DNA of 64,000 nucleotides from Dictyostelium discoideum (lineage: Eukaryota): NCBI GenBank assembly GCA_000004695.1, contig CM000150.2:1984001-2048000 (forward strand), in the 5' to 3' direction. This document shows positions 13,319 to 37,469 of the stretch, in pieces. Both the position numbers and the translations under genes were made by a program. The notes below the pieces were generated by a model. That model worked only from the letters and a program-made list of their open reading frames with translations, was not told the origin of the DNA and searched no databases. Each line of letters begins with the position of its first letter. Position 1 is the first letter of the stretch.

Positions 13319-13329
13319 TTTTTTGGTTT

Positions 13330-17847: not shown

Positions 17848-17949
17848 TTTTTTTGAATTGGATAACGCAATTATTAGTTGCTTCTCCTTGAGATGCTAGA
17901 TCTCATTTTATTGTAATATTTTTTACCAGTTCTCCAAAAGAGGGGTTAG

Positions 17950-18001
<52 letters not shown>

Positions 18002-18300: not shown

Positions 18301-18379
18301 GGCTATCTCACAATGAAGACCAAGTGCGGATAGAATAGTTGAAAAGATATTTTAATGATTCTTATATTTTTTATTAAAA

Positions 18380-18830
18380 TTATTTATTTGTTTTATTTAA
18401 AATAGTTGGTGGTTCAATTTGTTTTTTTCTTGTCCAATTTCATCATTTTCTTTTATCACATCACATAATCTAACAATTTTTCCATTTATATACTGAAGAT
18501 TTGTTAATAATTCGGTTCTTCCATTAAAAAATTTTTTTTGATAAAGTTGGTATATTCACTGAGGCTCATACCCTCCATTCCTTGACCAGAAACCATTTTG
18601 CAATCTTTAAAGTAACCTCTTGAGAATTTATAATGATTAAAAAGGATAATGTCAATTATTTTTACCATTTTTTCTTTACAATCGGCTGTGCACACATTAG
18701 GTTAAAACATTGGAAATTCATTTGGATCGGTTAATAACCATAGGTATTTATTCTTATCTTCCTCAGCTTCTTCAACGGAAAGATGTGGGCACTTATTATT
18801 AGCTCTATCTTTCATTATTTAAGTTGTGAC
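18380..18830 (-). pseudogene. Family A pseudogene (A4), frameshifted.
   Basis: Minus-strand segments YLWLLTDPNEFPMF and MCTADCKEKMVKIIDIILFNHYKF... (in another frame) and ...INGKIVRLCDVIKEND are collinear with the intact family A protein at 25231-25689 (LLDQDEFPKI...CTEECKEKMKEIY...DGKPVRLCELPPGV). Confidence 0.45.
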
Positions 18831-19299
18831 TATAAATATGTTTGTGTGATAATGTTTTATTTAATGCTAGTAAAAAATGTTAAAAAAAAATAATAATGAT
18901 AATTTAATTATTATTTAAAATTAAAAAAAAAAAAAAATAGAAAAAAACTTTTTTTTATGATGTTTTTTTTTGAAAATCAAAAATAAAAAAAACCAACACA
19001 AAAAACAACACCAACAGTTTTTTTCTATTTTTTTTTTACAAAAATAGAGACACAGGGAGTTTTTTTTCTTTTCTGCCATTACTTATTTTTTTAGTTTTTT
19101 TTTTAGAAATGCTAGGGTTACCTTCAAACAATAAAAATATTTATTTAATGTATATTTTTATTTATTTTTTTATTTATTTTTATTTTTTTTTTTGAATATA
19201 TAAATACATTTCTTTTTTTTTCATCAAAATAACAAAAAAAAAAAAAATGAAAAAACTATATAGATTATTATTATTCTAATAATTTTTTTATTATAAACA

Positions 19300-20454
19300 A
19301 AGGGGAGGCATAAATGAGAAGATTGACATCTGCTTTCTATGATCCTCCAGCTTACCCCCATCCTCATACTGGATATCCCATGGGTTTGTTTGCCGGCAAG
19401 AGATAAAGATCAAATTTGTCAAGCACCCGGTATTTATATTTATTTCTCAAATACTCCACGACCTTATCCACCACGATTGGTTTCTCACCCAGTTACACAA
19501 CCTGTTTATTCGATTGGAAAATCAATTAATGATATTAGAAGTAGGGTTAAGGTCCATAGTGAAGATGATTTCCCCCATTTGATTAACACCCTAATGGTTT
19601 GCTAATGAGGTTCCCATGTAATAATGAACGTTCTGATAGTAGACCAAGTTTTTCTGAAGTAGCGTTATTAACAATGTTTGCAACCATTAAAAACTACATT
19701 TTAGGTGTCAAAGATAGTGATATTATAGTTTTTGATGACAATGGAGAACCATTTGATATTTTAAGAACGTTTTATGGAGTTAATAATAATAATCCATTTC
19801 GTACTTCTATTCCTCTCATCCAAGCTAATGGAACTGCTAAATTTGGATTCGATCATATGGTTGATTCCACACTTTAACCATTAGCTCCTCCTTCCATAGA
19901 TGTTATCAATGACACTAAATCAATTTTCCCAATAGGTATTCTATATGAATGTGGAAAACTACTTGATGGAGATTATAGTAATTTTGGTCAAGAAGAATCT
20001 GCCAATGGGGTATGTAACCCATGCAATAGAAAAAAAGAAAGTGAAGAGAAAAAATCAAATCCAATCAAATTCAAAAATCCACCATTATCTTACCGTTTAG
20101 AAATTAGCAATAAGTTTAGTAATTTGGAATATCAAAATGCCAAAGAAAATGGTCTTCTAGGAAAAAGTCTAGTTGAAACAGAAAAGCCATCAAAGCCATC
20201 AAAAGTTGGTCTTTTCACTAGGTTTGGCCGTTGGTAAAGGTCTTTTTGTTCCAGAGAAAAAAAGTAATTCGCTTCCTGGCAAATTCAAAGATAGTAATAT
20301 TGAAATGGTAGAGGTAAATCCTGGAGAGGAACAAATAAGTGAAGCGGCGGGCGTTGAGCATAGTCAAATTAGATATAGAGGCACAAATTACTTTTTTGAA
20401 CTTGGAGAAGCTGCTGAAGAGGCTGCTATGATTATCATATCATATCTTTTTTAA
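19300..20454 (+). pseudogene. Family B locus (B1): several adjacent ORFs in different frames (19339-19605, 19599-19877, 20173-20454).
   Basis: The segment GYP(M/W)...GIYIYFSNTP is shared with the fragment at 31222-31446 (GYPWVC...KHPGIYLIFVNSP). The frame changes around 19380. GC content is locally above the window average. Confidence 0.3.
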
Positions 20455-21130
20455 TTTCTTGCACCTCTTTTACGTGCAAAGTTACCAGGTTTGGGTATAT
20501 ATCATTGAGTTTCTTGTGCAGTTGCATAAGTTCTAATTGGCTCTTGTCTTTCTCTGTTTCTTTGCAATCGTCTTCTTTCACTTTCTTCTTGCATCAACCT
20601 TCTTCTTTCTTCTTGTCCGGCCAATCTTTGTTGTGTTTTTTTAATTTTTTTTAATTTTACCTTTTCAAGATCTGCTTCAATTTCTTTTTTTTGACGGGCA
20701 CCCATCGTTTTTTTTTAAAAAATAAACCTAATGATTTATACTTGGTTATATTTAATAGTTGAGAATTTTTATTTTATGACATTGGTTTTGAATTATTTTT
20801 AAAAAAATCATTTTAAATTTTCTTTGATTCATTACATTTTTATTTCTATCTAATGATTTTATATTAATGATCAATAGAAAATCCAATAGCCACATAGGAA
20901 TTCTATAGAAAATCACTGGGAAATTTTGGTTTGATTACCTTTATAATGGTTATTTTCTAAAGATTTTCTATAGAAAACCATTGGGTAAACAGTTGTTTCT
21001 ATAGGAAATCTTTAGAAAACAATCATTGGAAATCGTTGAATTTTTCCTTTTCTCAATTTTTTAATAGTTTTCTAATGGGTCACATCTATACCGTTATCTA
21101 TTGAAAACCATTCCAACAAAAAAATCTAAT
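20447..21130. repeat. Left arm of a large inverted duplication. The right arm is 24430-25053; arms are ~90% identical and each is about 650 bp.
   Basis: The reverse complement of 24430-25053 matches 20447-21130. This includes the small basic-protein gene and 4-5 internal copies of the motif tctatagaaaa(c/t)ca(t/c)tgg. Confidence 0.75.
20502..20705 (-). CDS. Small basic Arg/Glu-rich protein, arm copy 1 (67 aa), truncated by a premature stop relative to copy 2.
   Basis: MGARQKKEIEADLEKVKLKKIKKTQQRLAGQEERRRLMQEESERRRLQRNRERQEPIRTYATAQETQ then TGA. The paralog at 24794 continues ...AQRYIPKPGNFARKRGARN. The homologous codon here is TGA where the other copy has AGA. Confidence 0.5.
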   Translation of the reverse strand: MGARQKKEIEADLEKVKLKKIKKTQQRLAGQEERRRLMQEESERRRLQRNRERQEPIRTYATAQETQ

Positions 21131-22918
21131 GGATTTCGATAAAGCAATATTAAATTATAAAAAATAAAAAAAAAAAAACAATTCAAATAGATGGTTTCAT
21201 TAAAAGAATATTTTAAAAAAGATTAAGGTTTTTATTTTAAAGAATTTTTATATTGATTTCGTAAAGGAAATCATTAAATGTTTTTAAAAAATGGTTTTGA
21301 ATTAAATGATAGCTAAATATTTCTTTACCAAGCTTCTTCAGCTCAATCTTTAATGAGTTCATAACCTTCTTCTGCAGTGATTCTAATTCCATCACCTACT
21401 TCACGTGTAGTATTGCCGATACCATCACCTACATCATGTGCAGTATCACCCCATGCTCATATCTAGATGCATTATCGGAACTTGGAAAAAAAAAGGATTA
21501 TGAACATGGTTTTGATTTCTCTGTTGAATTAAATGAAGATGGTAGCCTTCCAGATTTTCCAAATACTTTAGATCATTAAAACTGATAAAAAAAAAAAAAA
21601 AAATTAAAAAAAAAAAATAAAGATCATTACATAAACAAAACCAATTAAGGTTTTATTTTTTTTATTTTTATTGTTATCATTTTTTTTTTTAATTTATTGG
21701 AATCAATTTGGTATTCGATTTCAGCAGCAGCAATATATTCTTTTTTGGTATTCATTATTTCATTTTAAAAAAAAAAAATTAATAAAACATTATTAATATT
21801 TTTTTTTTAAAAATAGTTTTTTTTTTTTTTTTGAAATAGAATTAAAAAAAAAATTTAAGGAACTGGGATATTATTAACCATTATTCTTTTAGTACATATT
21901 TTTTTAATGGTGATTTTTTTTCCTCTCAAAAAGGTGCTAGTTAAAAAAAAAAAAAAAATAAAAAAAAAAAAAAGAAAAGCATTGATTAAAAATTTCATTG
22001 CCATAAAAATTAAATTGTCTTAGTTGGCACCTGAGATATTTTTTTTTTTTAAAAAAAAAAATTTTTTGATTGATTGGAAGATATTTTTTTTTTTTCCTTT
22101 TTTTTTTTTGGTAATTATTAGACAACCACAAACTCAAAGAGAGATTTACACAATAATTTATGATATTGCTTGTCCACATATACCAGGTACGGAGAATCCA
22201 AAATCATCTTTTAAATTTATGGACAGGTCCCATCTTCTTTAGGTTTTAATGATGCATAAAGCATTGCAGTACTCTTGTATTTGTCAAAAGATTCTACCAA
22301 ATCGGAGATATATTCGGCCGTGCTGCCATCAGGAATCTCTAAATCAAAAAGTGGTTCATATGTTCTCCAATCATTTAAATCATCTGAGAAATTCATATTC
22401 CGTTGCTTTTTTATGTGAGTTTTACTTGTTTTTTTTTTTCAAATTTTCATTTTATTTTTTTTTTTTATTTTTTTTTTTTCCAAATAAAAAAAATGTTTTT
22501 CGAATTTTTATTTTATTTTATTTTTATTTTTTTTATTTTTTTATTCTTTTATTTTTGTAATGTTGATGAATGATTGAATTAAAAATATAATTTACAAAAT
22601 TTTAATAAACTTATTTTTTTCAAGTTTTATTTTTATTCTTATTTTTATTTTTTATTTTTTAATTTTTTTTTATTTTATTTTTTTTATTTTTATTTTTATT
22701 TTTTTTTTTATTTTTTTATTTATTTTTTTTATTTTATTTTTTTATTTTTTGTAATATTAATGAATAATTGAATTAAAAATAATATACAAAATATAAACTT
22801 ATTTTTTCAAGTTTTTATTTTTATTTTTTTCTTTTTTTCTTTTATTTTTTTTATTTTTTTTTTTTTATTTTTATTATCTTTTTTTATTATTTTATTTTTT
22901 ATTTTTTTTTCCATTTTT

Positions 22919-23847
22919 ATGTATTTTCCTATTTTCTATTTTAAATTTGATATTATGAAATTTTTCCACATTTCTAAATTAATATTATTTTTTTTGTTTA
23001 TTTTTATAAATTTTTGTAAATGTCAACGTTTTGTTGGTACTCTTCCTCCTCAAAGAATAAGTGAAATTGTTAATTTTCAATGGAATAATGATATTATGTT
23101 TATAAACAGAGGTAGAAACAGATGGCCGGATATAGAACCCTTTGATGGAAACGGAGTTTATTTCGTATTTAGGCGAATGTTCAAATCATAATGTTTCTTA
23201 GAAATTTTGAACCTCCTAAGGCTGTTCATATGGAAACTTGGTTTCTTTCTGTTTTTGGATGTCCTTATAATAGCATAATTGAAGGAGGTTTAGGTGTAGC
23301 AGCATCAGGATATGGTGCAGGTGGATGGGTTAACTTCTTTAACACTGCTGATAGACAAGATGTTGTTGACTATATTCTCACCGAGACCCTTACAAGACCT
23401 GCTGACTTTTTAGATCACCCAAATTATCCTCGTGCTCCATCAATCATCAGAAAAATAGATGAATGCGAGCAAAACCTCACAAACTTACAAAACCAAATGG
23501 TGAGCCAGCAAACTAATATTGCGGATCTTCAAACACAAAATACAAACCTACAAACTCAAGTGACTAATCTCCAGAATCAAGTAACAGATCTTCAAAATCA
23601 ACTCCAAACTCATCAAAGTGGAAATAACTTTATGGCTGAGACACTCATTTTGGCACTTCTCAAATACAATGGACCGAGTCTAATTGTTTCAAATCCACTT
23701 CTTCGTGGTTGGTATGAAGCAAGAAAAAATGGTGGTGGTGGTGGTGGCAAGTGTGGTATCGGTGGTGTTGGTGATGGTAAGAATGGTGACGGCAAAAACG
23801 GTGACGGTAAAAACGGTGCGGATGGTGCAGATGGTGCAGATGGTTAG
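22919..23847 (+). CDS. Secreted coiled-coil / Gly-rich protein in the centre of the inverted duplication: two ORFs overlapping by 1 nt (22919..23191 and 23191..23847), a frameshift or pseudogene.
   Basis: A signal peptide MKFFHISKLILFFLFIFINFCKC is present. Heptad-like repeats (TNLQNQ/TDLQNQ) are present. The C-terminus reads GGGGGGKCGIGGVGDGKNGDGKNGDGKNGADGADGADG. The reading frame breaks at 23191. Confidence 0.3.
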
Positions 23848-23913
23848 TTAAAATCTGGCTGTACTTGTCCAGAAACCCCTCCCTGTCCAGTAGTAATTCC
23901 ATGCCCAGAGCCA

Positions 23914-24261
23914 GTGGTTTGTAATATAGCAAAAATTCAAATTCAATTGAATTCAACCATAAAAAGTTTGGATGAATGCAAAAAACAAAAGGACCAAACC
24001 AATGATGACCTCAACGTCTGCAAGTCCCATAAAGATGAGATACAAGATTGGCTCACCGACTGTCAAAAAGAATATGTTAAACAAACAAGTCATTCATCCA
24101 AAGATGATACTCTAATTTCTCTCAGAAACTGCCAAGCCGAATACAGAAAAGAAACATTCAAAAAAGATAAGCTCTGCCGTGGTTTGTCCAAACATATCAT
24201 TGGTTATTTAGATTTCTGTGAAGATAAGGTAGAAAAGCTGAGACTCGCTAATTGTGAATAG
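23914..24261 (+). CDS. Small Cys-containing ORF (115 aa), possibly continuous with the upstream gene.
   Basis: ORF from the track. It has regularly spaced Cys residues, and the frame is open upstream from a GTG (LKSGCTCPETPPCPVVIPCPEPV). Confidence 0.25.
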   Translation: MVCNIAKIQIQLNSTIKSLDECKKQKDQTNDDLNVCKSHKDEIQDWLTDCQKEYVKQTSHSSKDDTLISLRNCQAEYRKETFKKDKLCRGLSKHIIGYLDFCEDKVEKLRLANCE

Positions 24262-24793
24262 TTTTCTCATTTTTTTAAAAAAAAAAAAACAAAAAAAAAA
24301 AAAATCATACAATGATTTCCCTTTATGAAATCAATAAAAAATTCTTTAAATAAAATTTTTAATCTTATTTTAAAAAAATTCTTTTAATGAAATCCATTAT
24401 TTTCATTTTTTATAATTTTATTGAACTTTATTGAAAATAATTAGATATTGTTATTTCCAATGGTTTTAGATTGATAACGGTATAGATGTGACCATTACAT
24501 AGAAAACTATTAAAAATTGAGCCAAAGAAAAATCAACGATTTTTAATGGTTGTTCAAAGATTTCCTATAGAAACCATTATTTACCCTATGATTCTCTATA
24601 GAATTCCTAGCTAATGGATTTTCCAATGACCATTAATATAAAATCATTAGAAAGAAACAAAAATGTAACGAATCAAAGAAAATTTAAAATGATTTTTTTA
24701 AAAATAATTCAAAACCAATGTCATAAAATAAAAATTCTCAATTATTAAATATAAACATGTATAAATCATTAGGTTTATTTTTAAAAAAAAACG

Positions 24794-25048
24794 ATGGGTC
24801 CCCGACAAAAAAAAGAAATTGAAGCAGATCCTGAAACGGTCAAATTAATTAAAATTAAAAAAGCACAACAAAGAATGGCTGAACAAGAAGAAAGAAGAAG
24901 GTTGATGCAAGAAGAAAGTGAAAGAAGACGATTGCAAAGAAACAGAGAAAGACAAGAGCCAATTAGAACTTATGCAACTGCACAAGAAGCTCAAAGATAT
25001 ATACCCAAACCTGGTAACTTTGCACGTAAAAGAGGTGCAAGAAATTAA
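24794..25048 (+). CDS. Small basic Arg/Glu-rich protein, arm copy 2 (84 aa, apparently intact).
   Basis: MGPRQKKEIEADPETVKLIKIKKAQQRMAEQEERRRLMQEESERRRLQRNRERQEPIRTYATAQEAQRYIPKPGNFARKRGARN. Inverted paralog of 20502-20705. Confidence 0.5.
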   Translation: MGPRQKKEIEADPETVKLIKIKKAQQRMAEQEERRRLMQEESERRRLQRNRERQEPIRTYATAQEAQRYIPKPGNFARKRGARN

Positions 25049-25230
25049 AAAAAGAAAAAAATAAAAATAATTAAAAGAAATAAAAAAAAAAAAAAAAATT
25101 AAAAATTAAAAATTTAAAAAAAAAAAAATAAACTAGATCTCTTATATAAGAGTTATAAAAAAAAAAATAAAAGTAAAATAAAATAAAAAAATTTAAAACA
25201 GTTCTTTTTATTTAATTAACACTTTTTTTT

Positions 25231-25689
25231 CTATTCATCTTCTTCAGAATCAGGTAGGTTTTTTGCATCAAAATCACATTGTACACCAGGTGGCAATTCA
25301 CATAATCTAACAGGCTTTCCATCTTTAATACCAACTTTCATTGCTTTTATGACCATTCTAGCATATTCATCTTGGGGAGAGATAGGGGGTGGAGTACTGA
25401 AAAATTCTCGATACATCCAAATATCACATCCTCGAGGATTTTTTCCCAAGTTATATTCAAAAATTCTGCTGTCACTGTAATATTTGTTTATAGTCTCAAT
25501 ATAACGTTCGAATGTTATTCTATAAATCTCCTTCATTTTTTCTTTACATTCCTCTGTGCAGTAACCAGGCTGAATCTTTGGAAACTCATCTTGATCTAGT
25601 AATTCATCAAGGTAAAGAGTGAAATCTTCACTTTTTTTAAGCTTTCTTAAAGAAAATTCATCATGTTGGCAACAATATTTACTTGTCAT
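25231..25689 (-). CDS. Family A protein, intact copy (A1, 152 aa).
   Basis: MTSKYCCQHDEFSLRKLKK...DEFPKIQPGYCTEECKEKMKEIYRITFERYIETINKYY...DGKPVRLCELPPGVQCDFDAKNLPDSEEDE. Paralogs or fragments lie at 18380-18830, 25983-26195 + 30800-31056 and 35079-35411. No recognisable upstream exon. Confidence 0.55.
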   Translation of the reverse strand: MTSKYCCQHDEFSLRKLKKSEDFTLYLDELLDQDEFPKIQPGYCTEECKEKMKEIYRITFERYIETINKYYSDSRIFEYNLGKNPRGCDIWMYREFFSTPPPISPQDEYARMVIKAMKVGIKDGKPVRLCELPPGVQCDFDAKNLPDSEEDE

Positions 25690-25982
25690 TTTTATTTAAA
25701 ATTATACGTTATTAAATAAATAAAAAATAAATTAAAAAAAAAAATGGGTTAAAAATTGAAGTAAAAAAAAAAAAAATGAAAAAAAAATGAAAATAAAAAT
25801 TATTGACTTTTTTCCCACAGAAATGAGAAAAATAAATGAAATAAATAAAGACAAAAATAGAAAAAAAAAAACAAATTTTTTTAAAATGGGTGTAATTTTT
25901 ATATAATTTTTTATTTTTATTAATGGCTAATGGTGCGACAAGGGTAAGGGCTACAGTATGCAGTAATGGTGGCTATTCATCA

Positions 25983-26195
25983 TCACTCTTCTTCTTTTGA
26001 TTCACTTTCTCCTTCTGAATCGGTTAGACCAGTTGTTTCAATTTCTACATCTACACCCCTTGGCACGTCACATAATCTAACTAGTTTACCATTAAGTATT
26101 CCCGCTTTCATAGTTTTTAAAATACTATCACGGTACTCCGGATCAATCTTCTCCTCTTCTAAACAATCATTGTATGTCTGACAGCCAACTGTCAT
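25983..26195 (-). pseudogene. C-terminal half of a family A gene (A2), separated from its N-terminal half by the E1 insertion.
   Basis: MTVGCQTYNDCLEEEKIDPEYRDSILKTMKAGILNGKLVRLCDVPRGVDVEIETTGLTDSEGESESKEEE starts exactly at the element boundary (ATGAC on the minus strand, equal to the GTCAT direct repeat). It aligns to the C-terminal half of A1. Confidence 0.6.
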
Positions 26196-26398
26196 TGTTG
26201 TAGGGAATTTTCCATAAAATTTCACTACAGTAGCGTAGTGAATTTTATTATTTAATTTCACTACAGTAGCGTAGTGAAAAAAAAAAATCACTGACCTTAA
26301 ATTTTTTTTTTTTTCAAAAAACAAATAAAGTTTATTAAATTGAAATTTTATTTTTTGTTTTAATTATTATTTTATTTATTTTTATTATAATTATTGTT

Positions 26399-26438
<40 letters not shown>

Positions 26439-26706
26439 CAATTTTTTTTTTTTAAATTTTTTTCAATTTTTATTTGTTTATTAAATTGTAATTTTATTTT
26501 TTGTTTTAATTATTATTTTATTTATTATTATTGTTAATTTTTTTTTTTTTTCAATTTTTTTTTTTTTAATTTATTTTTATTAATTTATTTTTATTAACTC
26601 CCTGAGTTGTTCAATTGCTTGATTTACCATATCACTGTAAACACTGCACACAATTGAATTTTTTCTAGCTTTGTTACCTCTGGTGCATTTGATGTTTTTG
26701 CATTTT

Positions 26707-27465
26707 CACAGCGAAGAAAAAACCACCTTTAAATTCGCTTTAAATTAAATTTAAATTTGCTTTAAAGTCCTGAATTAAAGCAATTTTAAAGGTAATTTTA
26801 AAGGTAATTTATAAGGTTACTTTAAAATCACCTTAAAAATTACCTTTAAAATTACCTTTAAAATTACCTTTTTAATGGCTTTAAAAGCGAGGTCCTGAGT
26901 TCGAAGCCGTTATTTAACGGATAAATTTTTTAAAATTTTTTTTTTAATTTTTCAAAAATTACCAAAAGGGATTCGATCCCCCGACCCTCTATCAAAGGGT
27001 AGTCTCATCAACCATTACACCATTTGATTGCTTTGATGAAAAATTTAAAAATGATAGAATATTTTATCCCCATTTTTTTTTTCTAAAATTAGATCTTTTT
27101 TATTAAAAACCTTAAATTTATGTTTAAAGGAAATTTAAATTCACTTTAAATCTACTTTAAATATACTTTAAATCCTATTTAAAATTAATTTAAAATAAAT
27201 TTTAAAGGTATTTTTAAATATCTTAAAAATTATCTTAAAAATTACCTTAAAAATTACCTTTAAAATCACCTTTAAAATCACCTTTAAAATTGCTTAAAAA
27301 TTTATTTTAAAGCAAATTTTAAAGGCATTTTTAAATATCTTAAAAATTACCTTAAAAATTACCTTAAAAATGAATTTTTTAAACGCGGCTTTAAATTCAA
27401 TTTAAATCCAATTTAAATCAACTTTTCTTTAAATTTGCTTTAAAGGTGCATTTTTCTTTGCTGTG
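26707..27465. mobile_element. Nested 759-bp MITE-like element. It has ~27-bp terminal inverted repeats (cacagcgaagaaaaaaccacctttaaa / tttaaaggtgcatttttctttgctgtg), subterminal 12-bp periodic repeats (ttaaaggtaatt / taaaaattacct) and a tRNA-like core.
   Basis: Termini and repeats were read from the sequence. The internal segments ggtcctgagttcgaagcc (about 26893) and 26968-27031 (minus strand) have tRNA-like D and T arm sequences (TGGTGTAATGGT, GGGGGATCGAATCCC) but do not fold into a complete cloverleaf by hand. Confidence 0.45.
26968..27031 (-). other. tRNA-like fragment (Ile-GAU-like anticodon arm ACCCT-TTGATAG-AGGGT). No valid acceptor stem could be found.
   Basis: Hand folding only: the anticodon stem-loop and a T-arm-like GGGGG-ATCGAAT-CCCTT segment are present. 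No matching acceptor stem was found. Confidence 0.25.
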
Positions 27466-27974
27466 TTCCTTTGTATACAAAAAAGTCCAAATATAATTCG
27501 TTTTCTATTACAGTTTTTACACAATGTTGGTGAAATTGTTTTGATTTTAATTCTAATGCTTCTAACATCATATTTGGATTTTTAACGATTAAAGCATCAC
27601 CACTATTTACATATAGTACTTTGGCTGCTTTTTCGAGGAATTTAGTCAAATTTTCCTCTGAATCTAACTATTCTTCATTGCCATATTCAATGGCTAAATT
27701 TCTTAAGAGTTTTATCGAATCTATTAATTCTTCGATCATTCTTTTTTTTTGAAATTTTTTTTTATTTTGTTTTTTCAATTTTTTTTTTTTATTTTGTTTT
27801 TTCAATTTTTTTTAAGTTTTATTTTTTTTTATTTTTTTTTATTTTTTTTAACAAATGTAATTTTTTTTTATTTTTTTCAATTTTTTTTTTTTTTAATTTT
27901 TAATTTTTTTTTTTTTTTTTAATTTTTTGTGTTGATTTGTGTTTTTTTTGTTTTTTTGATTTGGCCACTTGTTT

Positions 27975-28961
27975 TTATTTTCTAATTTCCCCATACCCCC
28001 TTCTATTAATTGCAACCAAATCAAGTTCTAATTTTTGTGTCCTTGTTAACTTTGTTTTTGCAACTTTTTTTGAAGGTATCACATTAACGATTTTTCCTAT
28101 TGATGGTGATTTGGAAGGTGATTTAAATGGTGATTTAAAAGGTGAATTGGAAGGTGATTTAAATGGTGAATTGGAAGGTGAAATGGATGGTGATTTGGAA
28201 GGTGATTTAAATGGTGATTTGGAAGGTGATTTAAATGGTGATTTAAATGGTGAATTGGAAGGTGAAATGGATGGTGATTTGAGAGGTGATTTGGATGGTT
28301 TAGAATGTGATTTTAAAGGAGGTTTATTAACAATTGGTATCTTATGAGGACGGCCTCTGAGACGTTTAACAGTTGTTACTATACCACTACCAGATTGTGG
28401 TATAGTATACGATGGTATTATTTGCACTTGAGGTATTGGTGGTACTATTTCTTTTAAATTCATATCCTTTCTCAAACAATTCATTAAATTTGGCGCTGTT
28501 GGATTATTATTTAAAAATGGGAGTATTTCTTCTTGTTCCATTTCATTATTGAGTTTGTGTTGAAATGGATTATCGTTAATGATAGGTGGAATATTTGATG
28601 GATTGTTAAGAGCATCTTCCAAAACCCTAAATGGATCATTTTGTGTTACCAATTGATGCAAGTTGAAATTGGATAAATCCTTACCAAGATTTTTAATAAA
28701 CTGAACCAGAAATTCAATAACTTTCCCATCATTATTTAAATAAAGACCAGAAGTAAAAGAATCAATATCTTTTTGTATGTTTGGCGATGTTCTAAAAATA
28801 TCAACTGTTGATTGTTTATAAAGAACCAACTTGTTACCTCCTACAAAACCAGAGTATAAACCTTTTTTTTGAAGGCTATTGATTCCATCTTCCAAAAATT
28901 CAAGTTTATAAAGTTGTTTAGTGTCTTCCTGTATTACCTTATGAATTTTACACAAAATCAA
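27975..28961 (-). CDS. AT-hook / SPKK-repeat DNA-binding-like protein (328 aa), inside E1.
   Basis: An RGRP AT-hook (KRLRGRPHKIP) is followed by about 20 repeats of (K/S)SP(S/F)K. These are encoded by a 12-nt periodic DNA repeat (ggtgatttaaat/ggtgaattggaa on the plus strand, 28090-28320). The N-terminal 200 aa are non-repetitive. Confidence 0.4.
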   Translation of the reverse strand: MILCKIHKVIQEDTKQLYKLEFLEDGINSLQKKGLYSGFVGGNKLVLYKQSTVDIFRTSPNIQKDIDSFTSGLYLNNDGKVIEFLVQFIKNLGKDLSNFNLHQLVTQNDPFRVLEDALNNPSNIPPIINDNPFQHKLNNEMEQEEILPFLNNNPTAPNLMNCLRKDMNLKEIVPPIPQVQIIPSYTIPQSGSGIVTTVKRLRGRPHKIPIVNKPPLKSHSKPSKSPLKSPSISPSNSPFKSPFKSPSKSPFKSPSKSPSISPSNSPFKSPSNSPFKSPFKSPSKSPSIGKIVNVIPSKKVAKTKLTRTQKLELDLVAINRRGYGEIRK

Positions 28962-29031
28962 TATTTTCTATTAGAATTAAATATAAAATTTGTTAATTAT
29001 TACTGTTTCATATATTATTAATCTTTATGTT

Positions 29032-30268
29032 TTAATTACTTACATTATTTTTTTTAATTTCTAGAAAGAGTACAGTATCACCAACTTTCAATCCCTTTGG
29101 TGGTTTTGAATTCCATTGATTTTGGTAACTTGTGAGATTTTCAAGAATAATAGCTGTTCTTTCTTCTTTTGAAACATCTGAAACACCAATTGATTGAGAG
29201 TCTTGTTCTGATTGAACATTAATAAACAAAGGAACAATACCAACAGCTTGAGATGGTGTCATTTTAATTGTTCTTGTTTTTGTATTATTGTAATCATACA
29301 AAGCTTGTTTTAATAGTTCAGAAAGAGACCTAGAAGTACCATCAAGAAAACTAAAATTTATTTATAAATGATTAATTAATAAACATATCGATAATTTATA
29401 TTGTTCACAATATCATACTCTTGTTGTTTTAATTTTGAGATCCTCTCCTTGATAGTTCGATTCAATCTTTCTACCATACCTTGAGTTGTTGGTGTACGAG
29501 GAGCTCCATGTGCTGACTTGGAGCCTGGAAAAAGTTTTAGGAATTCTTTTTGGACTTTGTTTTTAAATTCACGTCCATTATCGCAGTGCCATACTTTCAC
29601 AGGTTTGCCAAAGTACGTGAGAGCCAAAAAATTGTATATGGGAACTGTTCTCTTTGTTGTCAAACATCTAAAAAATAAATGATAATTAAAATAAAAAAAG
29701 AAAACTAATAAATTAATAAATAAAAAATAAATACCTTCCAGTAGCAAATTTTGTAAAAGAATCTATGCATAGAATAATGTAAACAACATCGGTGTCGTAC
29801 GGTTGTACAGAGTCATATTGGATAAGATCATCTAGTTTAGTTAGTATCTTTTCATTATCATCATCGTATGTAACTTTTTCTTTATGTTCACCTTTAATTG
29901 ATGTTAAATCATAAACCAATCTTGAGTATTCCTCGGTATCTACAATTGGAGCAAAATCCTTTGTTATACCTATTAATTTATTTAAATTATTAAAAGAGTT
30001 TTAATATAAAAGTTACAAAACATCATATAAAAATGATTGATACCAAACCTTTTATTCTATTTCGTTGGCAAATGTCACACGTATCTACTGCATCAGATAC
30101 AAAAGAATACAATCCCATATTATAATATTTAGTCTTGTAGTTCCCATAGGTTGCATCTCTTCCTATATGACCTTTATGCATTTCTTCCCAGAGTGATACC
30201 ATTCTATAATCATTAATTACTTCTAAACACACTTCTTTTGATATATTTCTATCTCCGCCACAATTCAT
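29032..30268 (-). mobile_element. Degenerate Ty3/gypsy-type LTR-retrotransposon integrase remnant (Skipper/DGLT-like), fragmented across three or four ORFs.
   Basis: An HHCC zinc-binding motif is present (HKGHIGRDATYGNYK...CDICQRNRIKG). An integrase core is present (KVWHCDNGREFKN...SAHGAPRTPTTQGMVERLNRTIKERI). A C-terminal SH3-like KVGDTVLFLEIKK is present. Stops and frameshifts lie between the pieces. Confidence 0.6.
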
Positions 30269-30487
30269 GACTTTTTTTTCAATTCTAAATAATTTTTCTT
30301 TTCTGTTTCTGTTTTTTATTGGTCAGAATTTAAAAAATGATTGTGTTATTGTAAGGAAAAATATTTACTCATCATGTAAAAATTTATAATTTTTATGTTT
30401 AGTATTTTCAAAATTATTATCTTCAATAAATTTTAAATAATTTATAATTTCATTTATTTTATCTTGTTTCATTTTGGGAAAATGAAA

Positions 30488-30522
<35 letters not shown>

Positions 30523-30799
30523 TGTTGGGGAAAAAAAAAAAAAGTTTTGGCGCAAAAAAAAAAAAAAAAATAAAATAAAAAAAAAAAAAAATAAAATAAA
30601 AAAAAAAAAAAATAAAAAAACTTATATAGAACTAATAATCAAATAAAAGATAATAATTTAATAAACTTTATTTGTTTTTTGAAAAAAAAAAAATTTAGGG
30701 TCAGTGATTTTTTTTTTTCACTACGCTACTGTAGTGAAATTAAATAATAAAATTCACTACGCTACTGTAGTGAAATTTTATTGAAAATTCCCTACAACA

Positions 30800-31056
30800 G
30801 TCATTATTGGTGGGTCTGGGAAACTTTTGAATATTTTACAATCATCATAGTAATTATTAACTGCCTTGAGATATCCTTCGAAAGTTATCCTATAAATTTC
30901 TTTCATTTTTTTTTTACATTCTTTTGTACAGAGTCTATTTATCTCAGGGAATCTATCCTGGTCAAATAATTTATCATCGTATAAAAAGGGGCCAAGTTTT
31001 TTAAGGTTTTCTATTGAAAAGCGGTCATGTCCGCATCCACCTACTTTTCTCAACAT
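30800..31056 (-). pseudogene. N-terminal half of family A gene A2. The reading frame runs into the E1 terminal repeat (...PDPPIM then TVVGNFQ, stop).
   Basis: MLRKVGGCGHDRFSIENLKKLGPFLYDDKLFDQDRFPEINRLCTKECKKKMKEIYRITFEGYLKAVNNYYDDCKIFKSFPDPPIM aligns to the A1 N-terminus. It ends at the GTCAT/ATGAC direct repeat. Confidence 0.6.
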
Positions 31057-31221
31057 AATTTGTTGTGTGAAAATAAAAAAAAAAATTAAAAAAATAAATT
31101 AAAAAATAAATTAAAAAAAAATTAAAAAAAATAAATTAAAAAAATAAAAAATAAAATTTAAGTTTTTATTCATCTATAAAAACACAAAAAATTTTGATAA
31201 TATTAATAATTATAATTAAAA

Positions 31222-31446
31222 ATGTTTAACAGACTGTTATATCTATATTTTTTATTAGCTTTATATTTTAACCATATCCATTGCCTGGAAAAATATGCGT
31301 CGAAATTTTACAGACCACCAACAGCAGTACACAGACAAACTGGTTACCCATGGGTTTGTACAAGATATTTGGATGATACTAAAGAAGTGGTACAAAAAGA
31401 ATGCAAACACCCGGGTATATATTTAATTTTTGTAAATTCACCATAG
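31222..31446 (+). pseudogene. Family B fragment (B2, 74 aa ORF).
   Basis: KFYRPPTAVHRQTGYPWVCTRYLDDTKEVVQKECKHPGIYLIFVNSP is similar to the B1 segment at 19339-19450. DNA similarity continues up to the E2 boundary. Confidence 0.35.
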
Positions 31447-31480
31447 TCTACCTCTTTGGTTAATTTGTTCCATACACCTA

Positions 31481-31696
31481 TGTTGTAGGGAATTTTTTTT
31501 GAAATTTCGCTTTCTAAACGGCAGTGAATTTTTACACTAAAATACACTGTTTATGCATGGTGTAAAAATTCACTAAATTTTTTTTTTTTTATAATTAAAT
31601 TAAAAAACAATTTATTTAATCAGAAAAATAAAAAACCAATTTTATTCAGTTATTTGCTTGTTATTTATTTTTTTATAACAAAAAAATTTAGTTTGC

Positions 31697-31754
<58 letters not shown>

Positions 31755-31837
31755 CAATTATTTTTTTCAATTTTTTTTTTTATCGATTGTTTCATTTTTG
31801 GGGAATAAAATAAAATTGTTCGATAAAAAAAAAATTG

Positions 31838-31900
<63 letters not shown>

Positions 31901-32102
31901 GGTTTATATTTTAATTATGGTATTCATTATTGTTTATATAATTATTTTTAGTATTTATATTATTTATAATTATAAACTCGAGTTAATAGAATTATTATTA
32001 TTATTATTATTATTTAAATGTGGGTCAACTATAATTAGTGTCTTAGTTCACTTATTTAATATTAACTTATTTTTGTGTCTTCGTTACATAAAAAAAAAAA
32101 TG

Positions 32103-32134
<32 letters not shown>

Positions 32135-33156
32135 AAAAAAAAAATAAAAAAAAAAAGAAAAATAAAAAAAAAAAGAAAAATAAAAAATAAAAAAAAAAAT
32201 AAAAAAAATAAAAAAAAAATAAAAAAAAAAGAGGGTACCCCCCCCTAAAAAAAATAATAATTTTAATAATAATAATAATAATAATAAAAATGAAAATTAA
32301 TATTTAAATAAAAAAAAGAGGGTACCCCCCTAAAAAATGTTGGAATTTAATTAAATTTATTTTTTATTTTTTTTATTTTTTAATTTTATTTTTTTTATTT
32401 TTTAATTTAAAAAATGTTGATATAAAACAAAAAAATTTTTTCAAAAAAAACATTTCAAATTATTTTTAACAAATTATATTATTATACTTTAATGTATGTG
32501 TACAATTTTAAAAATTTAAAATTTGTTCTATTTTTATCAATCATATCATGTATATTTATTAATTAAATCTCATATATTCTTATTCCCAGCAAATGACATC
32601 AGGTGGAATCGTACAACCAGGCCAAAATCTCTCACAACGTCCAATAAACGGCCAATATGGCTGGGGACCAGCAGCAGGAAGTGCCGCAAATCCACGTGGC
32701 GATCTCCGTGGTTACACTTACAATATTAGATAGTTTCGCTGTCTATTTCTGAATATTCAGAAATCTTTGTTTAATGCCAAAAATAGTAGATATCTATTAT
32801 ATTTTCTCATTTTATAAATCTGATAAGATCTGTCTTAAATAAAAAAAATCAAATTTTTTTATAAATTAAAAAAAATCATTTCCGCAAATCCGCAAAAAAT
32901 AGCGGGAATTAAATTATTTATTGTTTTTTAAATTGTTTTTTTTGCGTGATATGAAATGAACAGCAAATGAACAACGTGTGAGTTGTATTAGCTGATGGTA
33001 ATATTTATTTATTTTTGTTTAATTAAAAAATTTTTTATAAAATAAAAAAAAAAAAAAATTTTAGTGAATTTTTACACTACGCATAAACAGTGTATTTTAG
33101 TGTAAAAATTCACTGCCGTTTAGAAAGCGAAATTTCAAAAAAAATTCCCTACAACA
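31481..33156. mobile_element. E2: 1.7-kb element with ~97-bp terminal inverted repeats sharing the terminal 16 bp (tgttgtagggaatttt) with E1. Flanked by a 6-bp direct repeat CACCTA. The interior is non-coding.
   Basis: 31481-31577 is the reverse complement of 33061-33156 with one 3-nt difference. Each arm contains a 15-bp-stem hairpin (agtgaatttttacac...gtgtaaaaattcact). CACCTA lies at 31475-31480 and 33157-33162. The interior has poly(A/T) tracts and two GAGGGTACCCCCC boxes (32231, 32318). Confidence 0.55.
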
Positions 33157-33584
33157 CACCTATCTATGGGTGGTATGACTTTTAATATGGTTACTTCAGC
33201 ATTTTCGAAATTAATATTTGAAATCATTTGATAGTAAAACGTTAGACAATTTGAATAGGTTTGATTGTTTATGATTTTCAAAACCGATGTATCAAAGTAA
33301 ACAATATCATACTCTGACGATGACAAAGCATTACATAAATCATTAGCTTCCACAGCCAATAGGTATTTTTGTAAAGTTTCAAACTGATCATTAGCAAATG
33401 GAAACTTTGAGTACATATCCTTTAGGAGAGCATTAGCTACAGTGGAATCAGTAGGTTCACCGAAAAATCCAACCTTTTGACCAATAAGGATTTCTTTTCT
33501 TTCATATGACTCTTTAATTCTATTTAAAATTGTTGTTTTTCCAGAACCAATTGGACCTGTAGTAATTTTAATCTTAGGAGGCAT
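33135..33584 (-). CDS. P-loop NTPase, deoxynucleoside/nucleotide kinase-like ORF (149 aa). Its 3' end runs into the E2 terminal repeat, so it is likely interrupted.
   Basis: A Walker A motif ITTGPIGSGKTTILNRIKE is followed by GFFGEPTDS, resembling the dNK EGNIGSGKTT...EP pattern. The last 6 codons (VVGNFF) are encoded by the E2 TIR. Confidence 0.35.
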   Translation of the reverse strand: MPPKIKITTGPIGSGKTTILNRIKESYERKEILIGQKVGFFGEPTDSTVANALLKDMYSKFPFANDQFETLQKYLLAVEANDLCNALSSSEYDIVYFDTSVLKIINNQTYSNCLTFYYQMISNINFENAEVTILKVIPPIDRCVVGNFF

Positions 33585-33891
33585 TTTTTTTTTTCTTTTT
33601 TATTTATTTTTAGATATTATCTTGTTTTATTTTTTTTAAAAAAAAATAATAATTTATATCCATTTTTAAAAAAAACAAAAAAGCTTCCATGGTGTTCTTT
33701 TTTTTAAAAAAAGAATTCTATTAAAGAATAGTTATAAAAATAAAAAAAAAAAAAAAATAAGGGAAGAAAAAAAAAAAATCTTGGTTTTGATTTTCAAAAA
33801 AAAAAAAAAAAAAAAAAAAAAATTAAAAATTATAAAAAAAAAAAAAAAAAATATCTTCTTTTTTTTTAAAAAAAAAAAATAAAGAATAAAA

Positions 33892-34811
33892 ATGAACATT
33901 CATGTAAAATCAGTTTGTATTGATAATGGCATCATAATTTTTAAAAAACAAGATCAGGCATTTAATTATATGAATAGTGTCAGCTCTATTGAAAAATATT
34001 TTATATTTTCATATGAATTTGGCGATAAAGGTCAACGTGCTTTTTTAGTATCTCCAAGTATTGAAAAACTCTTCAAATGTATAATGAATACACCATTGAA
34101 TCTTCGTCATTATTATGAATTGATTCCACAATTTGAAAATTGTAATTTGTATTTAGATATTGATTTTAAGTTATCACCCGAGAAAGCAGAAGAAAATAAA
34201 AGAAACAAACAACTTTATAAAAACAATCTTATCGATAGAATTATAATCGACGAAGTAAAACCCATCCAAAGAAAACACATCCACAGGTCTCTGATGAAAT
34301 CGATAGCATTGAACCATTATTGCTCTTCTCCTATCAATACGATAAATATTCTTTACATTTACATTGGCCATTGAAAACCTTCCATTGGAAAGACAATGAA
34401 CATCTTGGAGAATGGGTAAAACAATTTGTTATTGAAAGATCCATCTATATACCAGAGCTCAACTATATCGATACGTCAGTTTATTCAAAATTCAGAAATT
34501 TTCGTCTAATGGGAAATAAAAAATTCAGTAAGAGTATTGAAACAATACTTAGAACAACATCTAAAGATAAAACCCTTGAAACCTTTGAAAAAACTATAAT
34601 AACATCATCGAATTTTCAAAAACAAAACGATACTGGTATCGATGAGAAAATCCTTTCATCTAATGGTTTCGAATCTTTAAAGAATACTGGTAGATCAACA
34701 GTTGATGTTAAGAGGAATCAACACCAACGAATTTCTTGTAATGATTTGATTTCATTGGAAGGTATGGGTCTCTCATTGGACGAATGTAATGATATTATAT
34801 TTTGTTTTTAA
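33892..34811 (+). pseudogene. Archaeo-eukaryotic primase (AEP) superfamily primase-like gene with one frameshift (ORFs 33892..34374 and 34320..34811 overlap).
   Basis: Motif I is hhhDhD (CNLYLDIDFK), preceded by FIFSYEFGDKGQRAFLV. Motif II is sxH (YSLHLHWP). Motif III is DTSVYSKFRNFRLMGNKKFSK. The order and spacing match p48/viral-type DxD AEP primases. The frame shifts between motifs I and II. Confidence 0.5.
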
Positions 34812-35078
34812 TTTTTATAGAAGATTTTTTCAATTAAAATTCTATAAAAATAAAAAACAAAATAAAAAAAATAAATTTTATAAAAAAAAAAAAATGTTTG
34901 AAAATATAAAATCATTAATCTTCTCAGCAGTTTCTTTATTATTCTCTTTTTTGTATTATCATAGTGATTCAATTATATCTTTATTCACTCAAAATCTTGG
35001 TGAGGCAGTTTTGGAAACAATAGACGAAGTAATTCATAAACCCCAAACCTCATTACAACAAGAATCATTAAAATTACA

Positions 35079-35411
35079 ATGTACATGCAAACCATTATAA
35101 AACAATCGAAAAGTATCGATGAAGATTTGGTACAAGGAACTAAAAAATGGGAAGAAGTAAGAGAGAAGTATTCTTTTACTGGAAGTAGATTAGCTGCTGC
35201 CATTGGAATTGATCCATACACTTCACAACATGATTTATTTCATTTTTTATATACAATTGTTGGAATGTGCATTCATGATAAATATAATTTTGAAGATTTG
35301 TTCCAAAGAGTAGGCAGTGGCACATCATTTGCTGTTATCGAAGAATTCATGAGGGGTGATCTTTTTCCTGATATCAAAAATGGATGTAGTGAAGAATGTA
35401 AAAAAAAATGA
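35079..35411 (+). CDS. Family A-related ORF (A3, 110 aa) with an N-terminal YqaJ-like exonuclease motif, C-terminally truncated.
   Basis: QGTKKWEEVREKYSFTGSRLAAAIGIDPYTSQHDLFHFL fits the N-terminal motif of YqaJ/lambda-exonuclease-like nucleases (W..R...TAS..aai.G..P..s...L). It is followed by CIHDKYNFEDL...DLFPDIKNGCSEECKKK, which aligns with the family A N-terminus (CCQHDEFSL...DEFPKIQPGYCTEECKEK). Confidence 0.35.
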   Translation: MYMQTIIKQSKSIDEDLVQGTKKWEEVREKYSFTGSRLAAAIGIDPYTSQHDLFHFLYTIVGMCIHDKYNFEDLFQRVGSGTSFAVIEEFMRGDLFPDIKNGCSEECKKK

Positions 35412-37469
35412 TACAATATACACAGGCCGTGTTTAAAAACTATATGAACTCTGTATGTTGGTACATAATGATGTTAATATACCAAAAAAGTTTGATGATA
35501 ATGGGCCCTCGTGCTTTTCAAATTATATCCATTCTTTGGTAGGTGGTTTCAAGGAAGAAAACTCTTGTTATTTCAACTATACGCCACGTCTCGAAAATAA
35601 TAGTAGTAAATTTCCAGATTATCCAAAAGAAAATTCTCAATAAAAATAAAAAGTTTATAATTTTTTTATTTATTTTGTTAATTTTTGTTTTTATTTTAAA
35701 TAAATAAATAATTTTAATAAATAATAATTAAAAAAAAAAAAATCATTGAAATCTAGTTGTAATTTTTATTTTATTTTATTTTTTTCTTTAAATTATTTTT
35801 CTTTAATCATTTTTATTTTGAATAATGATCTGAGACTACACGGGAAAAAAACCTAGTAAAATGTTAAAATATAATTAATTAAATTAAATTTTAATAAAAG
35901 TTTGTAATGCTATTTATAAATTAATAAAAATTATTAAAAAATAAGATTGATAGTTGCAAAAAAATAAAAAAAATAAAATTTATAAAAAAAAGAAACTTAT
36001 TATAAAAAAAAAATAGCATTTTTTATTAAAATTTAATTAATACTATAAAATAAGAAAATATATTAGAATTTTTAAATTTTATTAATTCGGGGTTATTTTT
36101 TTTTTTTAAAAATAATTATAATAATTATTAGAAAATAGGATATTTTATAAAAAAATAAGATTATTTATAAAAAATGTAACCTTTATTATTTTTTAATAAA
36201 ATATATTTAAAAAATAAGATAAATAATAATAAAAAAAAAATAATAAAATATATTAAAAATTGAAACATTATATAATTTTTAACATATTTTATTAAAATGT
36301 AATAAATACTAAAAAAATGAGATATTATATAAGAAGGTTATAAATTTTATTAATTATGGTTTTAATAATAAGATGTTTAAAAAATAATAATATAAATTAT
36401 AAATTGGAAAATTTTATAATATTCAACATATTTTATTAAATATAAGTAAAAAATAAGATAAAAAATAAATTTTATAAAAAAAAAAAATATATATATATTA
36501 AATGAAACTTTTTATTATTTTAAAAAATATAGGAATTGAATTAATAAAAATAAGATATTATAAGAATAAATATGCGAAAACAAGAAAAATTTTATTAATT
36601 TTGAATTTGGTTTTTTTTTTATTTTTTTATTTTTTTTTTTTTTTTATCCATTTTCAAACTAAATCTGAATCGATTGTTTTTTTTTTTTTTTTTTTTTTTT
36701 TATCTGGATAAAAGTTGTTTGTATTTATTTAAAAAATTATTTGATTTTACTTTTTTTTTTTTTTTTTCATATTTTTTTTTTTTCATCATTTTTTTTTCAT
36801 TTTTTTTTCACCTTTTTTTTTACCAAAGTAAGTAAATTTTCATTATTTGTTTGAATAAAATCAGTAAACTAATTATTAAATTAGAATAAATAAAATTGAT
36901 GAAACAACTTATAAAAAAAAAAATAAAAATAATAAAAAAAAAAAAATAAAAAAAATTTAGAAAAATTAAAAAATATGTTTATTTTAAATATTCTTTATAT
37001 AGTATAATGTTTTAATTAATATCTTTTGGTATTATATGTCAACACATTTCATAGTATAAAATGAAAAAGAAAATTTATTTTCAGTTTTATTATCTTATTA
37101 CTCACAAATATAAATATGTTATAAATTAAATAAATATATAAATATATATTAATTAAAAGAAATAGATATTTAATTAAATTATATATAATTAAATAGAAAT
37201 AAAAATTAAATTGGTTATTCAAAAAATAAATAAAAAAAAATAGAATATAATAAAAAATAATTCTTTTAAGTCCTTCTATAGTATACCACTTCCTTTGCAT
37301 ATTTAAAACAAATAACCTCTTTAAAATTAAAATTCATATATTGAAATTCTTAAATTGTAATTTTAAATATTTGTTTAATGGATAACCGTAATAAATCTAT
37401 TTTCTATTAATTTTTAATTATTCTTTCAAAAAATAAAAAATTATAATTTTTTTATATTTTTTTTTTCAA

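Follow-up and report, generated by a model that had tools for sequence, protein, structure and literature searches.

The stretch of Dictyostelium discoideum DNA analysed here (positions 1,984,001 to 2,048,000 of contig CM000150.2, assembly GCA_000004695.1; 64,000 nucleotides, henceforth referred to as the 'window') is about 22% G+C, with poly-A/T tracts and N/Q-rich open reading frames (ORFs), and the relatives that a homologue search returned for its proteins were all from Dictyostelium. It contains a family of small genes (henceforth referred to as 'family A') encoding proteins of about 125-160 amino acids, which the original prediction, made from the letters, had placed at four loci and linked to transposons. 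When the intact copy, A2, was used as a tblastn query against the window, all four were recovered: the N-terminal half of A3 at 30826-31035 (E 6e-21), its C-terminal half at 26019-26138 (E 1e-7), A1 at 18543-18761 (E 1e-6) and A4 at 35268-35426 (E 4e-4). A hidden Markov model (HMM) of four intact subtypes from another strain recovered every family-A piece at E values of 1e-7 to 1e-42 and located a fifth piece at 21313-21576 (E 5.6e-8), which had been overlooked. The copies are related well beyond chance, and the conserved motifs that had been quoted for them are seen in the alignments. The pieces were compared with loci of related genomes (L-numbers; L004 is from another D. discoideum strain, L005 from another strain, L009 and L010 from D. 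dimigraforme, and L011 and L003 from D. cf. discoideum) and with retrieved relative proteins or gene models (P-numbers, e.g. P0040, P0053 and P0060), and are as follows:

18418-18815, minus strand: A1, a P0040-type pseudogene interrupted by one in-frame stop and one frameshift (tblastn with intact P0040: 68-89% identity over two frames, E 3e-51)
21445-21573, plus strand: the fifth piece, the last 43 residues of an A5-type gene (tblastn with the L005 A5: 74% identity, E 7e-18)
25231-25689, minus strand: A2, the sole intact family-A gene, an ORF of 152 aa (exact match to P0053, AX4 DDB_G0268734; B partner missing)
25986-26195, minus strand: A3, C-terminal half, including the left GTCAT (26191-26195); colinear with the uninterrupted gene at L005 12589-12876
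30800-31056, minus strand: A3, N-terminal half, beginning with the right GTCAT (30800-30804); 93% identity to residues 1-87 of the L005 A3
35265-35640, plus strand: A4, a pseudogene with frameshifts at ~35401-35460; 98% and 79% identity to the L005 A4 in two frames

Comparison with intact relatives agrees with the prediction that one copy is intact (A2), one split by a transposon (A3) and two degenerate (A1 and A4). The coordinates given for A2 were exact, whereas those given for A4 (35079-35411) took in 53 codons of a YqaJ exonuclease gene and lost the 3' two-thirds of the pseudogene. This copy had been credited with a YqaJ-like motif. By blastn, the similarity to YqaJ runs up to 35237, and from 35234 onwards the sequence aligns with the 5' flank of a gene of the A4 type (L005 16542-17009); the motif is therefore a deletion or rearrangement junction (35234-35237) and no family-A domain. 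The stub covers only positions 1-33 of 150 of the Pfam YqaJ profile, so that a complete nuclease domain is not present, and the annotated P0024 is a chimera of YqaJ and A4. A2 is also found on contig JBTAPE010000039.1 of assembly GCA_054883475.1.

The halves of A3 are separated by one transposon, E1, and a second, E2, lies in a gene for a deoxynucleoside kinase-like protein (henceforth 'dNK'):

26196-30799, minus strand: E1, an autonomous Tdd/Ginger2-type DNA transposon of 4,604 bp with terminal inverted repeats (TIRs) of ~305-320 nt at 83% identity, TGTTG termini and an integrase-like transposase
31481-33156, no strand assigned: E2, 1,676 bp, related to E1 but non-autonomous; its 16-nt terminus is that of E1, its TIRs are ~155 nt long at 90% identity, and it sits in the dNK-like gene

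The terminus TGTTGTAGGGAATTTT occurs exactly four times in the window, at 26196, 30799, 31481 and 33156, and the likeness between E1 and E2 is limited to the terminal ~16-30 nt. E1 matches Integrase_H2C2 at 36.7 bits (cut-off 25.5) and rve and rve_3 under their cut-offs; the annotated 715-aa transposase product matches the same two families (Integrase_H2C2 and rve), and no reverse transcriptase match was obtained in the three E1 ORFs scanned. Both flanks of E1 carry the 5-bp target duplication GTCAT, which is present in a single copy at the empty site, the uninterrupted A3-type gene of another strain (L005 12233-12876). The target duplication of E2 is ACCTA or CACCTA (5 or 6 bp, ambiguous) and is likewise single in L004, where the empty site lies at ~7531 within an intact dNK gene. 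The hallmarks of the Ginger2/Tdd group (TDD-4/5) are TGTNR ends, long TIRs, 5-bp duplications and an integrase-like transposase (PMC2836005); the termini, TIRs, duplications and H2C2 plus DDE-like transposase fit, and E1 and E2 are Ginger2/Tdd cut-and-paste DNA transposons. E2 was also considered as a carrier of family-B sequence (see below), which was rejected as the tblastn extension was a spurious read-through past a stop.

In the original prediction, the 3' ends of family-A genes were said to be fused with transposon termini. This is true of A3 alone among the family-A copies in the window; E1 and E2 inserted into genes of a larger block, hence the apparent fusion, and the 'VVGNF' peptides that end the A3 and dNK ORFs are translated TIR. 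The hairpin modules described alongside are subterminal palindromes repeated inside the E1 TIR. The proposal that family A is carried or bordered by TGTTGTAGGG fails because A3 lies outside E1, its empty site exists and the termini are absent at other loci: only A3 has the TGTTGTAGGG terminus at its borders, and the 16-nt terminus is absent from ten other loci holding ~20 A genes, in which matches with up to three mismatches are isolated and chance-like, none being intact or adjoining an A gene. At these ten loci family A has no association with a transposable element, an outcome that the prediction had itself named as contrary to its proposal. Family-A genes are components of the block, not transposon cargo.

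Each recognisable piece in 18148-35640 of the window (17.5 kb) maps by tblastn to the gene families of this block, and host genes (a PPR-methyltransferase, a Dicty_CTDC repeat protein, lipases and actin) flank it on both sides. The L004 array is almost intron-free and intact-looking, and runs in the order FAM12/13, FAM10, YqaJ, PrimPol-like primase, dNK-like kinase, family B, A2, a basic 96-aa ORF, the collagen-like FAM4, FAM5, FAM6, FAM7, FAM8 and the large FAM16 gene; in L009 the same families follow in the same order, with ~17 gene families in common. The primase is, by its profile and structure-database matches, a PrimPol-type archaeo-eukaryotic primase (AEP): it matches human PrimPol (5l2x/7jk1) at E 1.9e-13 and AEP_C962R, the AEP domain of African swine fever virus (ASFV) C962R, at 23.8 bits against a cut-off of 23, with a weak zinc-finger part (Herpes_UL52 13.4 bits, under the cut-off of 21). 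The best PDB match of the YqaJ protein is the bacterial-type exonuclease 3syy (E 2e-12), with further matches to mimivirus R354 and RecE-like PHROGs, and the dNK-like kinase resembles deoxynucleoside/thymidylate kinases (Pfam, PHROG). At least four intact 398-aa primase copies, including identical duplicates, were found on one D. cf. discoideum contig, and solitary block fragments, including a chimeric dNK::A2, occur in unrelated host contexts. On the D. cf. discoideum ACTFIY contig (2,977,794 bp) the PrimPol-like loci number at least six, and two pairs of their proteins are identical; on the D. dimigraforme contig JBTAPM010000037.1 (1.227-1.312 Mb) family members ACTA71_005963 to ACTA71_006031 extend over at least ~85 kb near the contig end; these clusters could represent recent amplification or a much larger element.

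At all loci examined, the A gene that is first in its array faces a family-B gene head-to-head at a distance of ~280-460 bp, and the two are of matching type: A2 goes with the L004-type B, A3 with the L005b type, A4 with the L010c type and A5 with the L008 type, and the pairing recurs in an isolated intact pair of D. purpureum and an isolated pair of D. firmibasis. In the window, A1 and A3 retain remnants of the partner and A2 and A4 are without one. The B proteins have a signal-peptide-like start, a GIY..YIG(K/R)S..R..E..N pattern that is invariant in seven of them, and low-complexity or disordered tails. The Pfam GIY-YIG match is weak (one of the seven B proteins, E 0.038), and a PDB profile search with the B proteins found nothing; the core spacing is close to that of I-TevI, except for a longer gap between GIY and YIG. 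B and FAM4 (window 19296-20234, 31222-31443 and 22919-23191; L004 8269-9714 and 12415-12999) are alike in having a signal-peptide-like segment at the start and, after it, a core resembling GIY…YIG(K/R)…R…E…N. To find a fold of the GIY-YIG kind after a secretion signal would be odd, and its profile support is weak. We infer from the arrangement that the B/A pair is the unit of duplication and that A may act with its cognate B, for example as a specific binding or regulatory partner.

Profile searches placed all named relatives of family A in group-4 Dictyostelium (D. discoideum strains, D. cf. discoideum, D. citrinum, D. dimigraforme, D. firmibasis and D. purpureum), and an exhaustive profile search among 1.8 billion representatives gave 27 clusters at 50% identity, of which at least one match, the repeat protein P0034, is spurious. 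Members in AX4 are located on chromosomes 1, 2, 3 and 5, and at least five subtypes (A1 to A5) can be distinguished. Residues C7, H9, C44 and C48 (A2 numbering) are invariant over four subtypes and, with D34, F36 and P37, (nearly) invariant overall, the four putative metal-ligand positions being invariant or at least 90% conserved in 13 members across species. This C-x-H...C-x3-C signature probably forms a small zinc site, and is followed by a long helix predicted at residues 46-73 (AF2 model). In keeping with the prediction, which had recognised no characterised domain, family A had no Pfam, PHROG, PDB-sequence or fold match (the PDB-sequence profile search gave a chance match only), nor did any known zinc-finger family match it. 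A link between family A and the zinc finger of the primase through a common CT(D/E)EECKK string was rejected, as the ligand spacing differs and profile support is lacking. The ratio of nonsynonymous to synonymous substitution rates (dN/dS) in orthologous and paralogous comparisons was 0.15-0.43, and family-A proteins were therefore under purifying selection in the past; the near-identical pair of the window and L005 differs by 10 nonsynonymous changes and 1 synonymous change, which is compatible with recent neutrality. The FAM5 proteins (110-118 aa; window 22220-22396, minus strand, L004 13382-13738, L008 10529-10876) have C-x-AEC and 'NEDG(S/T)xP' motifs that resemble the core and C-terminus of the A5 type, and may be distant, N-terminally reduced kin of family A. 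In the AX4 models DDB_G0288733 (L002 10001-10449) and P0088 (DDB_G0268738), introns bridge frameshifts in family-A pseudogenes, and the spliced models are probably annotation artefacts.

In L010 and L011, and thus in two species, the block runs past FAM16 into a capsid-like and then a VLTF3-like gene, in the same order. Capsid_N, the model for the N-terminal jelly roll of the major capsid protein (MCP) of nucleocytoplasmic large DNA viruses (NCLDV), matched at 24.4 bits in L010 and 23.6 bits in L011 (cut-off 24; E 2.5e-5 to 4e-5), and the best PDB sequence match of the 414-aa capsid candidate (L011 15511-16755) was to PBCV-1 MCPv3 and weak (E 0.47). Pox_VLTF3 matched the intact 470-aa ORF at L011 16804-18216 at 25.0 bits, equal to its cut-off of 25 and hence marginal (E 1.7e-5), and the frameshifted L010 copy at 18.6 bits. 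VLTF3 has been reported without occurrence outside Nucleocytoviricota (PMC11253617). Within the block, constraint is strongest on the capsid-like gene (dN/dS 0.04; 8 nonsynonymous vs 48 synonymous changes), other block genes having values of 0.09-0.33.

Overall, we consider it likely that 18148-35640 is an eroded endogenous Nucleocytoviricota-like virus, with family A among its accessory families of paralogues; the viral origin is probable, not proven. The earlier notion that the family travels with repeated or mobile DNA stands, and the mobile context that fits is a much larger virus-like gene block. The window block is a scrambled, partly duplicated copy of a conserved multi-gene element, which on this account would be an endogenous DNA virus that integrated. 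The window copy decayed by stops, frameshifts, deletions and an inverted duplication, and was later hit by the two Tdd/Ginger2 transposons, E1 interrupting A3 and E2 the dNK gene.

Several results weigh against a viral origin. The capsid and VLTF3 matches are at the Pfam gathering thresholds and lie in related loci, not in the window, where no capsid remnant was found. No packaging ATPase (A32/FtsK-type), DNA polymerase B or D5-type helicase was found in the ~45 kb of element sequence seen, which may be less than the full element; a clear P-loop occurs in dNK only, a second Walker-A-like string in FAM10 comes without an ATPase-family Pfam match, and the PrimPol-like primase is without a helicase. 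Searches of IMG/VR with family A, the primase and the capsid candidate gave no relatives, and neither did searches of a metagenome collection with family A and the capsid candidate. Composition shows no sharp contrast, G+C at third codon positions being 0.20-0.27 in element genes and 0.07-0.30 in host genes, and the isolated intact B/A pairs in D. purpureum could equally be a host family captured by the element.

These points bear on a first alternative, that the block is an ordinary fast-evolving gene cluster of group-4 hosts, with PrimPol, YqaJ and dNK as host paralogues, hallmark matches arising by chance or from a separate neighbouring element, and decay as birth-and-death evolution. Its host-like gene composition, the AX4 annotation of its members as ordinary hypothetical genes, the isolated intact B/A pairs among D. 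purpureum host genes and the threshold-level hallmark matches would all accord with this, and dN/dS below 1 is expected for host genes too. However, two independent matches to Nucleocytoviricota core genes adjoin each other in the same order after FAM16 in two species, and with ~87 sequences searched against Pfam only ~0.002-0.004 false matches are expected per hallmark family at E values of ~2e-5 to 4e-5. Many dispersed copies per genome, identical duplicates among them, and chimeric dNK::A2 fragments in unrelated host contexts also speak against a host cluster, as does a synonymous divergence (dS) of A2 copies that is greater within D. discoideum (0.55) than between D. discoideum and D. dimigraforme (0.28). 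We therefore regard a host cluster as unlikely.

Less probable still is that the block belongs to some other kind of mobile element, such as a Polinton-like virus, a virophage-like integrating element or an integrated large nuclear plasmid. Multicopy, dispersed occurrence with intact copies in some strains would suit such an element, as would the lack of polymerase and RNA polymerase genes in the sequence seen; double jelly-roll capsids are common across Bamfordvirae, and Polintons are known from dictyostelids, as reported only from other genera (PMC4642659). Against this, the VLTF3-like gene has so far been reported only in Nucleocytoviricota, mriyaviruses included, the capsid match is to the NCLDV-type Capsid_N model, and the sequence seen gave no sign of a protein-primed polymerase, an rve or tyrosine integrase, a Ulp1 protease or an FtsK-type ATPase. 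That the TGTTGTAGGG transposons carry family A or preferentially accompany it, and spread it in this way, is scarcely credible: E1 termini on both broken A3 ends and ORFs that run into the TIR to give similar 'VVGNF' peptides in A3 and the dNK gene could suggest it, but A3 lies outside E1 with a 5-bp target duplication at its borders and an uninterrupted allele is known, the interior of E1 has transposase-type ORFs only, the window has just the four termini with E2 in a different gene, and the terminus is missing from the ten other loci with their ~20 A genes.

A broader proposal can be put forward tentatively, to which we give somewhat less than even weight. Group-4 genomes, including AX4, may hold multiple copies of an undescribed integrating DNA virus related to Nucleocytoviricota, with capsid-like, VLTF3-like, PrimPol-type, YqaJ and dNK-like genes; some of the intact recent duplicates in wild strains might be active, and A plus B might be its signature accessory module, a divergently transcribed, co-diversifying pair that D. 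purpureum has kept on its own and perhaps domesticated.

The other recognisable pieces of the block in the window are as follows:

18148-18348, minus strand: FAM8 fragment, left end of the preserved block (tblastn with the L005 ORF 18704-19027: 81% identity, E 2e-31)
19296-20234, plus strand: family-B pseudogene, head-to-head with A1 (tblastn to the L009 and L010 B genes, several frames)
20428-20890, no strand assigned: left arm of an inverted duplication with a small basic ORF, MGARQKKEIEAD... (93-94% complementary to the right arm; homologous 96-aa ORF at L004 10644-10934)
22108-22203, plus strand: FAM6 fragment (by tblastn, the FAM6 and FAM5 fragments align with ORFs of L008 and L009 at 100% and 81% identity)
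22220-22396, minus strand: FAM5 fragment (identity given with FAM6)
22919-24258, plus strand: FAM4, frameshifted, with a signal-peptide-like N-terminus, coiled coil and collagen-like repeats (84-92% identity to L009 3527-5089 and L004 11540-12163)
24610-25071, no strand assigned: right arm of the inverted duplication with the basic ORF 24794-25048 (repeat search and tblastn)
31222-31443, plus strand: N-terminal 74 codons of a family-B gene, the A3 partner (93% identity to the L009 B)
33157-33584, minus strand: 5' part of the dNK-like gene, cut by E2 (83% identity to the L004 dNK; Pfam dNK on the L004 product; PHROG thymidylate kinase 4.7e-8)
33892-34811, plus strand: PrimPol-like AEP primase, frameshifted (97-98% identity to L004/L005)
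35079-35237, plus strand: 53 codons from the start of the YqaJ exonuclease gene, which is otherwise deleted (96% identity to the intact 281-aa L004 YqaJ)

Nearly all window pieces are truncated or frameshifted, and those still open are A2 and the short basic ORF 24794-25048. The basic ORF of the inverted duplication reads MG(A/P)RQKKEIEAD…RRRLQRNRERQEP… and is kept beside A2 in L004 and L010. The duplication itself suggests that the window block consists of two partial element copies joined in opposite orientation. The first primase ORF (33892-34371) is identical to P0060, which is AX4 DDB_G0269072. Together with the identity of A2 to DDB_G0268734, this shows that the window comes from the laboratory strain of D. 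discoideum. Compared with the intact gene at L004 7067-7858, the window dNK has an in-frame deletion of 12 codons (between …FDTSV and LKIIN…), and the B fragment joins the downstream remainder of dNK (31447-31480, minus strand) at ~31447. At L003 10430-10520 (the P0008 locus) a dNK fragment abuts an A2 fragment (…TTTACA followed by CCTATC…); when compared with window positions 33156/33157 and 25548, the dNK side stops exactly where E2 inserted in the window, and the annotated P0008 is a dNK::A2 chimera. This join could have arisen by transposon-mediated deletion or as an alternative product of transposition. In L005, the primase and dNK genes are separated by a transposase gene of the Harbinger type (DDE_Tnp_4) and a Cys-rich/GR-rich ORF (3112-4182, also 1646-2811), which show an independent transposon invasion of another block copy. 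On the left of the window block, a non-long-terminal-repeat (non-LTR) retrotransposon at ~11800-17950, with an annotated RVT_1 gene at 15343-16441 (L001 gene table), meets the edge of the block at a poly-T tract (17955-18004). This retrotransposon may have caused the truncation of the block, the FAM16/capsid/VLTF3 side of which is missing in the window.

D. discoideum is a major model organism for which no virus is known. The literature on endogenous and giant viruses in Dictyostelium and on the AX4 gene identifiers yielded nothing describing this element; virus-derived elements were not found reported for dictyostelids, nor were these identifiers found mentioned. Were the block the relic of a giant-virus relative, this would account for a number of AX4 'hypothetical proteins' of long standing and provide a first molecular record of DNA-virus infection in social amoebae; wild strains with intact copies would be the place to seek an active or inducible virus, and a tractable host would be available for the study of endogenisation and decay, including transposon invasion. 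Should the viral reading fail, family A would be an ordinary lineage-specific gene family that took one transposon hit. For annotation, several gene models are chimeric or pseudogenes, for example P0024, P0008, DDB_G0288733 and DDB_G0268738.

The locus and its components can be set beside known systems. E1 and E2 share with TDD-4 and TDD-5 of D. discoideum the TGTNR termini, long TIRs, 5-bp duplication, H2C2 plus DDE transposase and absence of reverse transcriptase; by the described features, TDD-4/5 are 3.8 kb and E1 is 4.6 kb, and E2 differs as a 1.7-kb non-autonomous element. Like the B/A genes, the tgrB1/tgrC1-type pairs of Dictyostelium are arranged head-to-head around a short common intergenic region and have diversified in matched fashion, whereas the tgr proteins, large Ig-fold membrane proteins with a role in allorecognition, are unrelated to B and A. 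Endogenous Nucleocytoviricota (giant endogenous viral elements, GEVEs, and NCLDV insertions of protists such as Acanthamoeba, Euglena and green algae) resemble the block in placing virus-type genes in a eukaryotic chromosome, and for Euglena GEVEs erosion by pseudogenisation, duplication and transposon invasion is described (PMC12455990), as in the block. In contrast to GEVEs, the block is in a new host lineage (no Dictyostelium report was found), has incomplete hallmarks with no ATPase, DNA polymerase B or RNA polymerase seen, is multicopy and apparently of modest size, and in the window is represented by a copy without hallmark genes. Mriyaviruses and Yaravirus, small relatives of giant viruses (35-45 kb), have a small gene set comprising MCP and VLTF3, with which the capsid-like and VLTF3-like genes of the block compare, no DNA or RNA polymerase and, in some, an AEP-type primase domain, and the mriyavirus gene set without polymerases implies nuclear replication (PMC11253617). 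The comparison is by gene content, and the HUH endonuclease, helicase, packaging ATPase, VLTF2 and RuvC that mriyaviruses carry were not detected in the block. The MGF (multigene family) genes of ASFV and the bro genes of baculoviruses are paralogous accessory multigene families of large DNA viruses. Family A is like them in comprising many divergent, clustered, small orphan paralogues that evolve faster than the core (dN/dS 0.15-0.43 vs 0.04 for the capsid-like gene); it differs in having no sequence or fold similarity to them and in a duplication unit that would be the divergent B/A pair, with its co-varying types.

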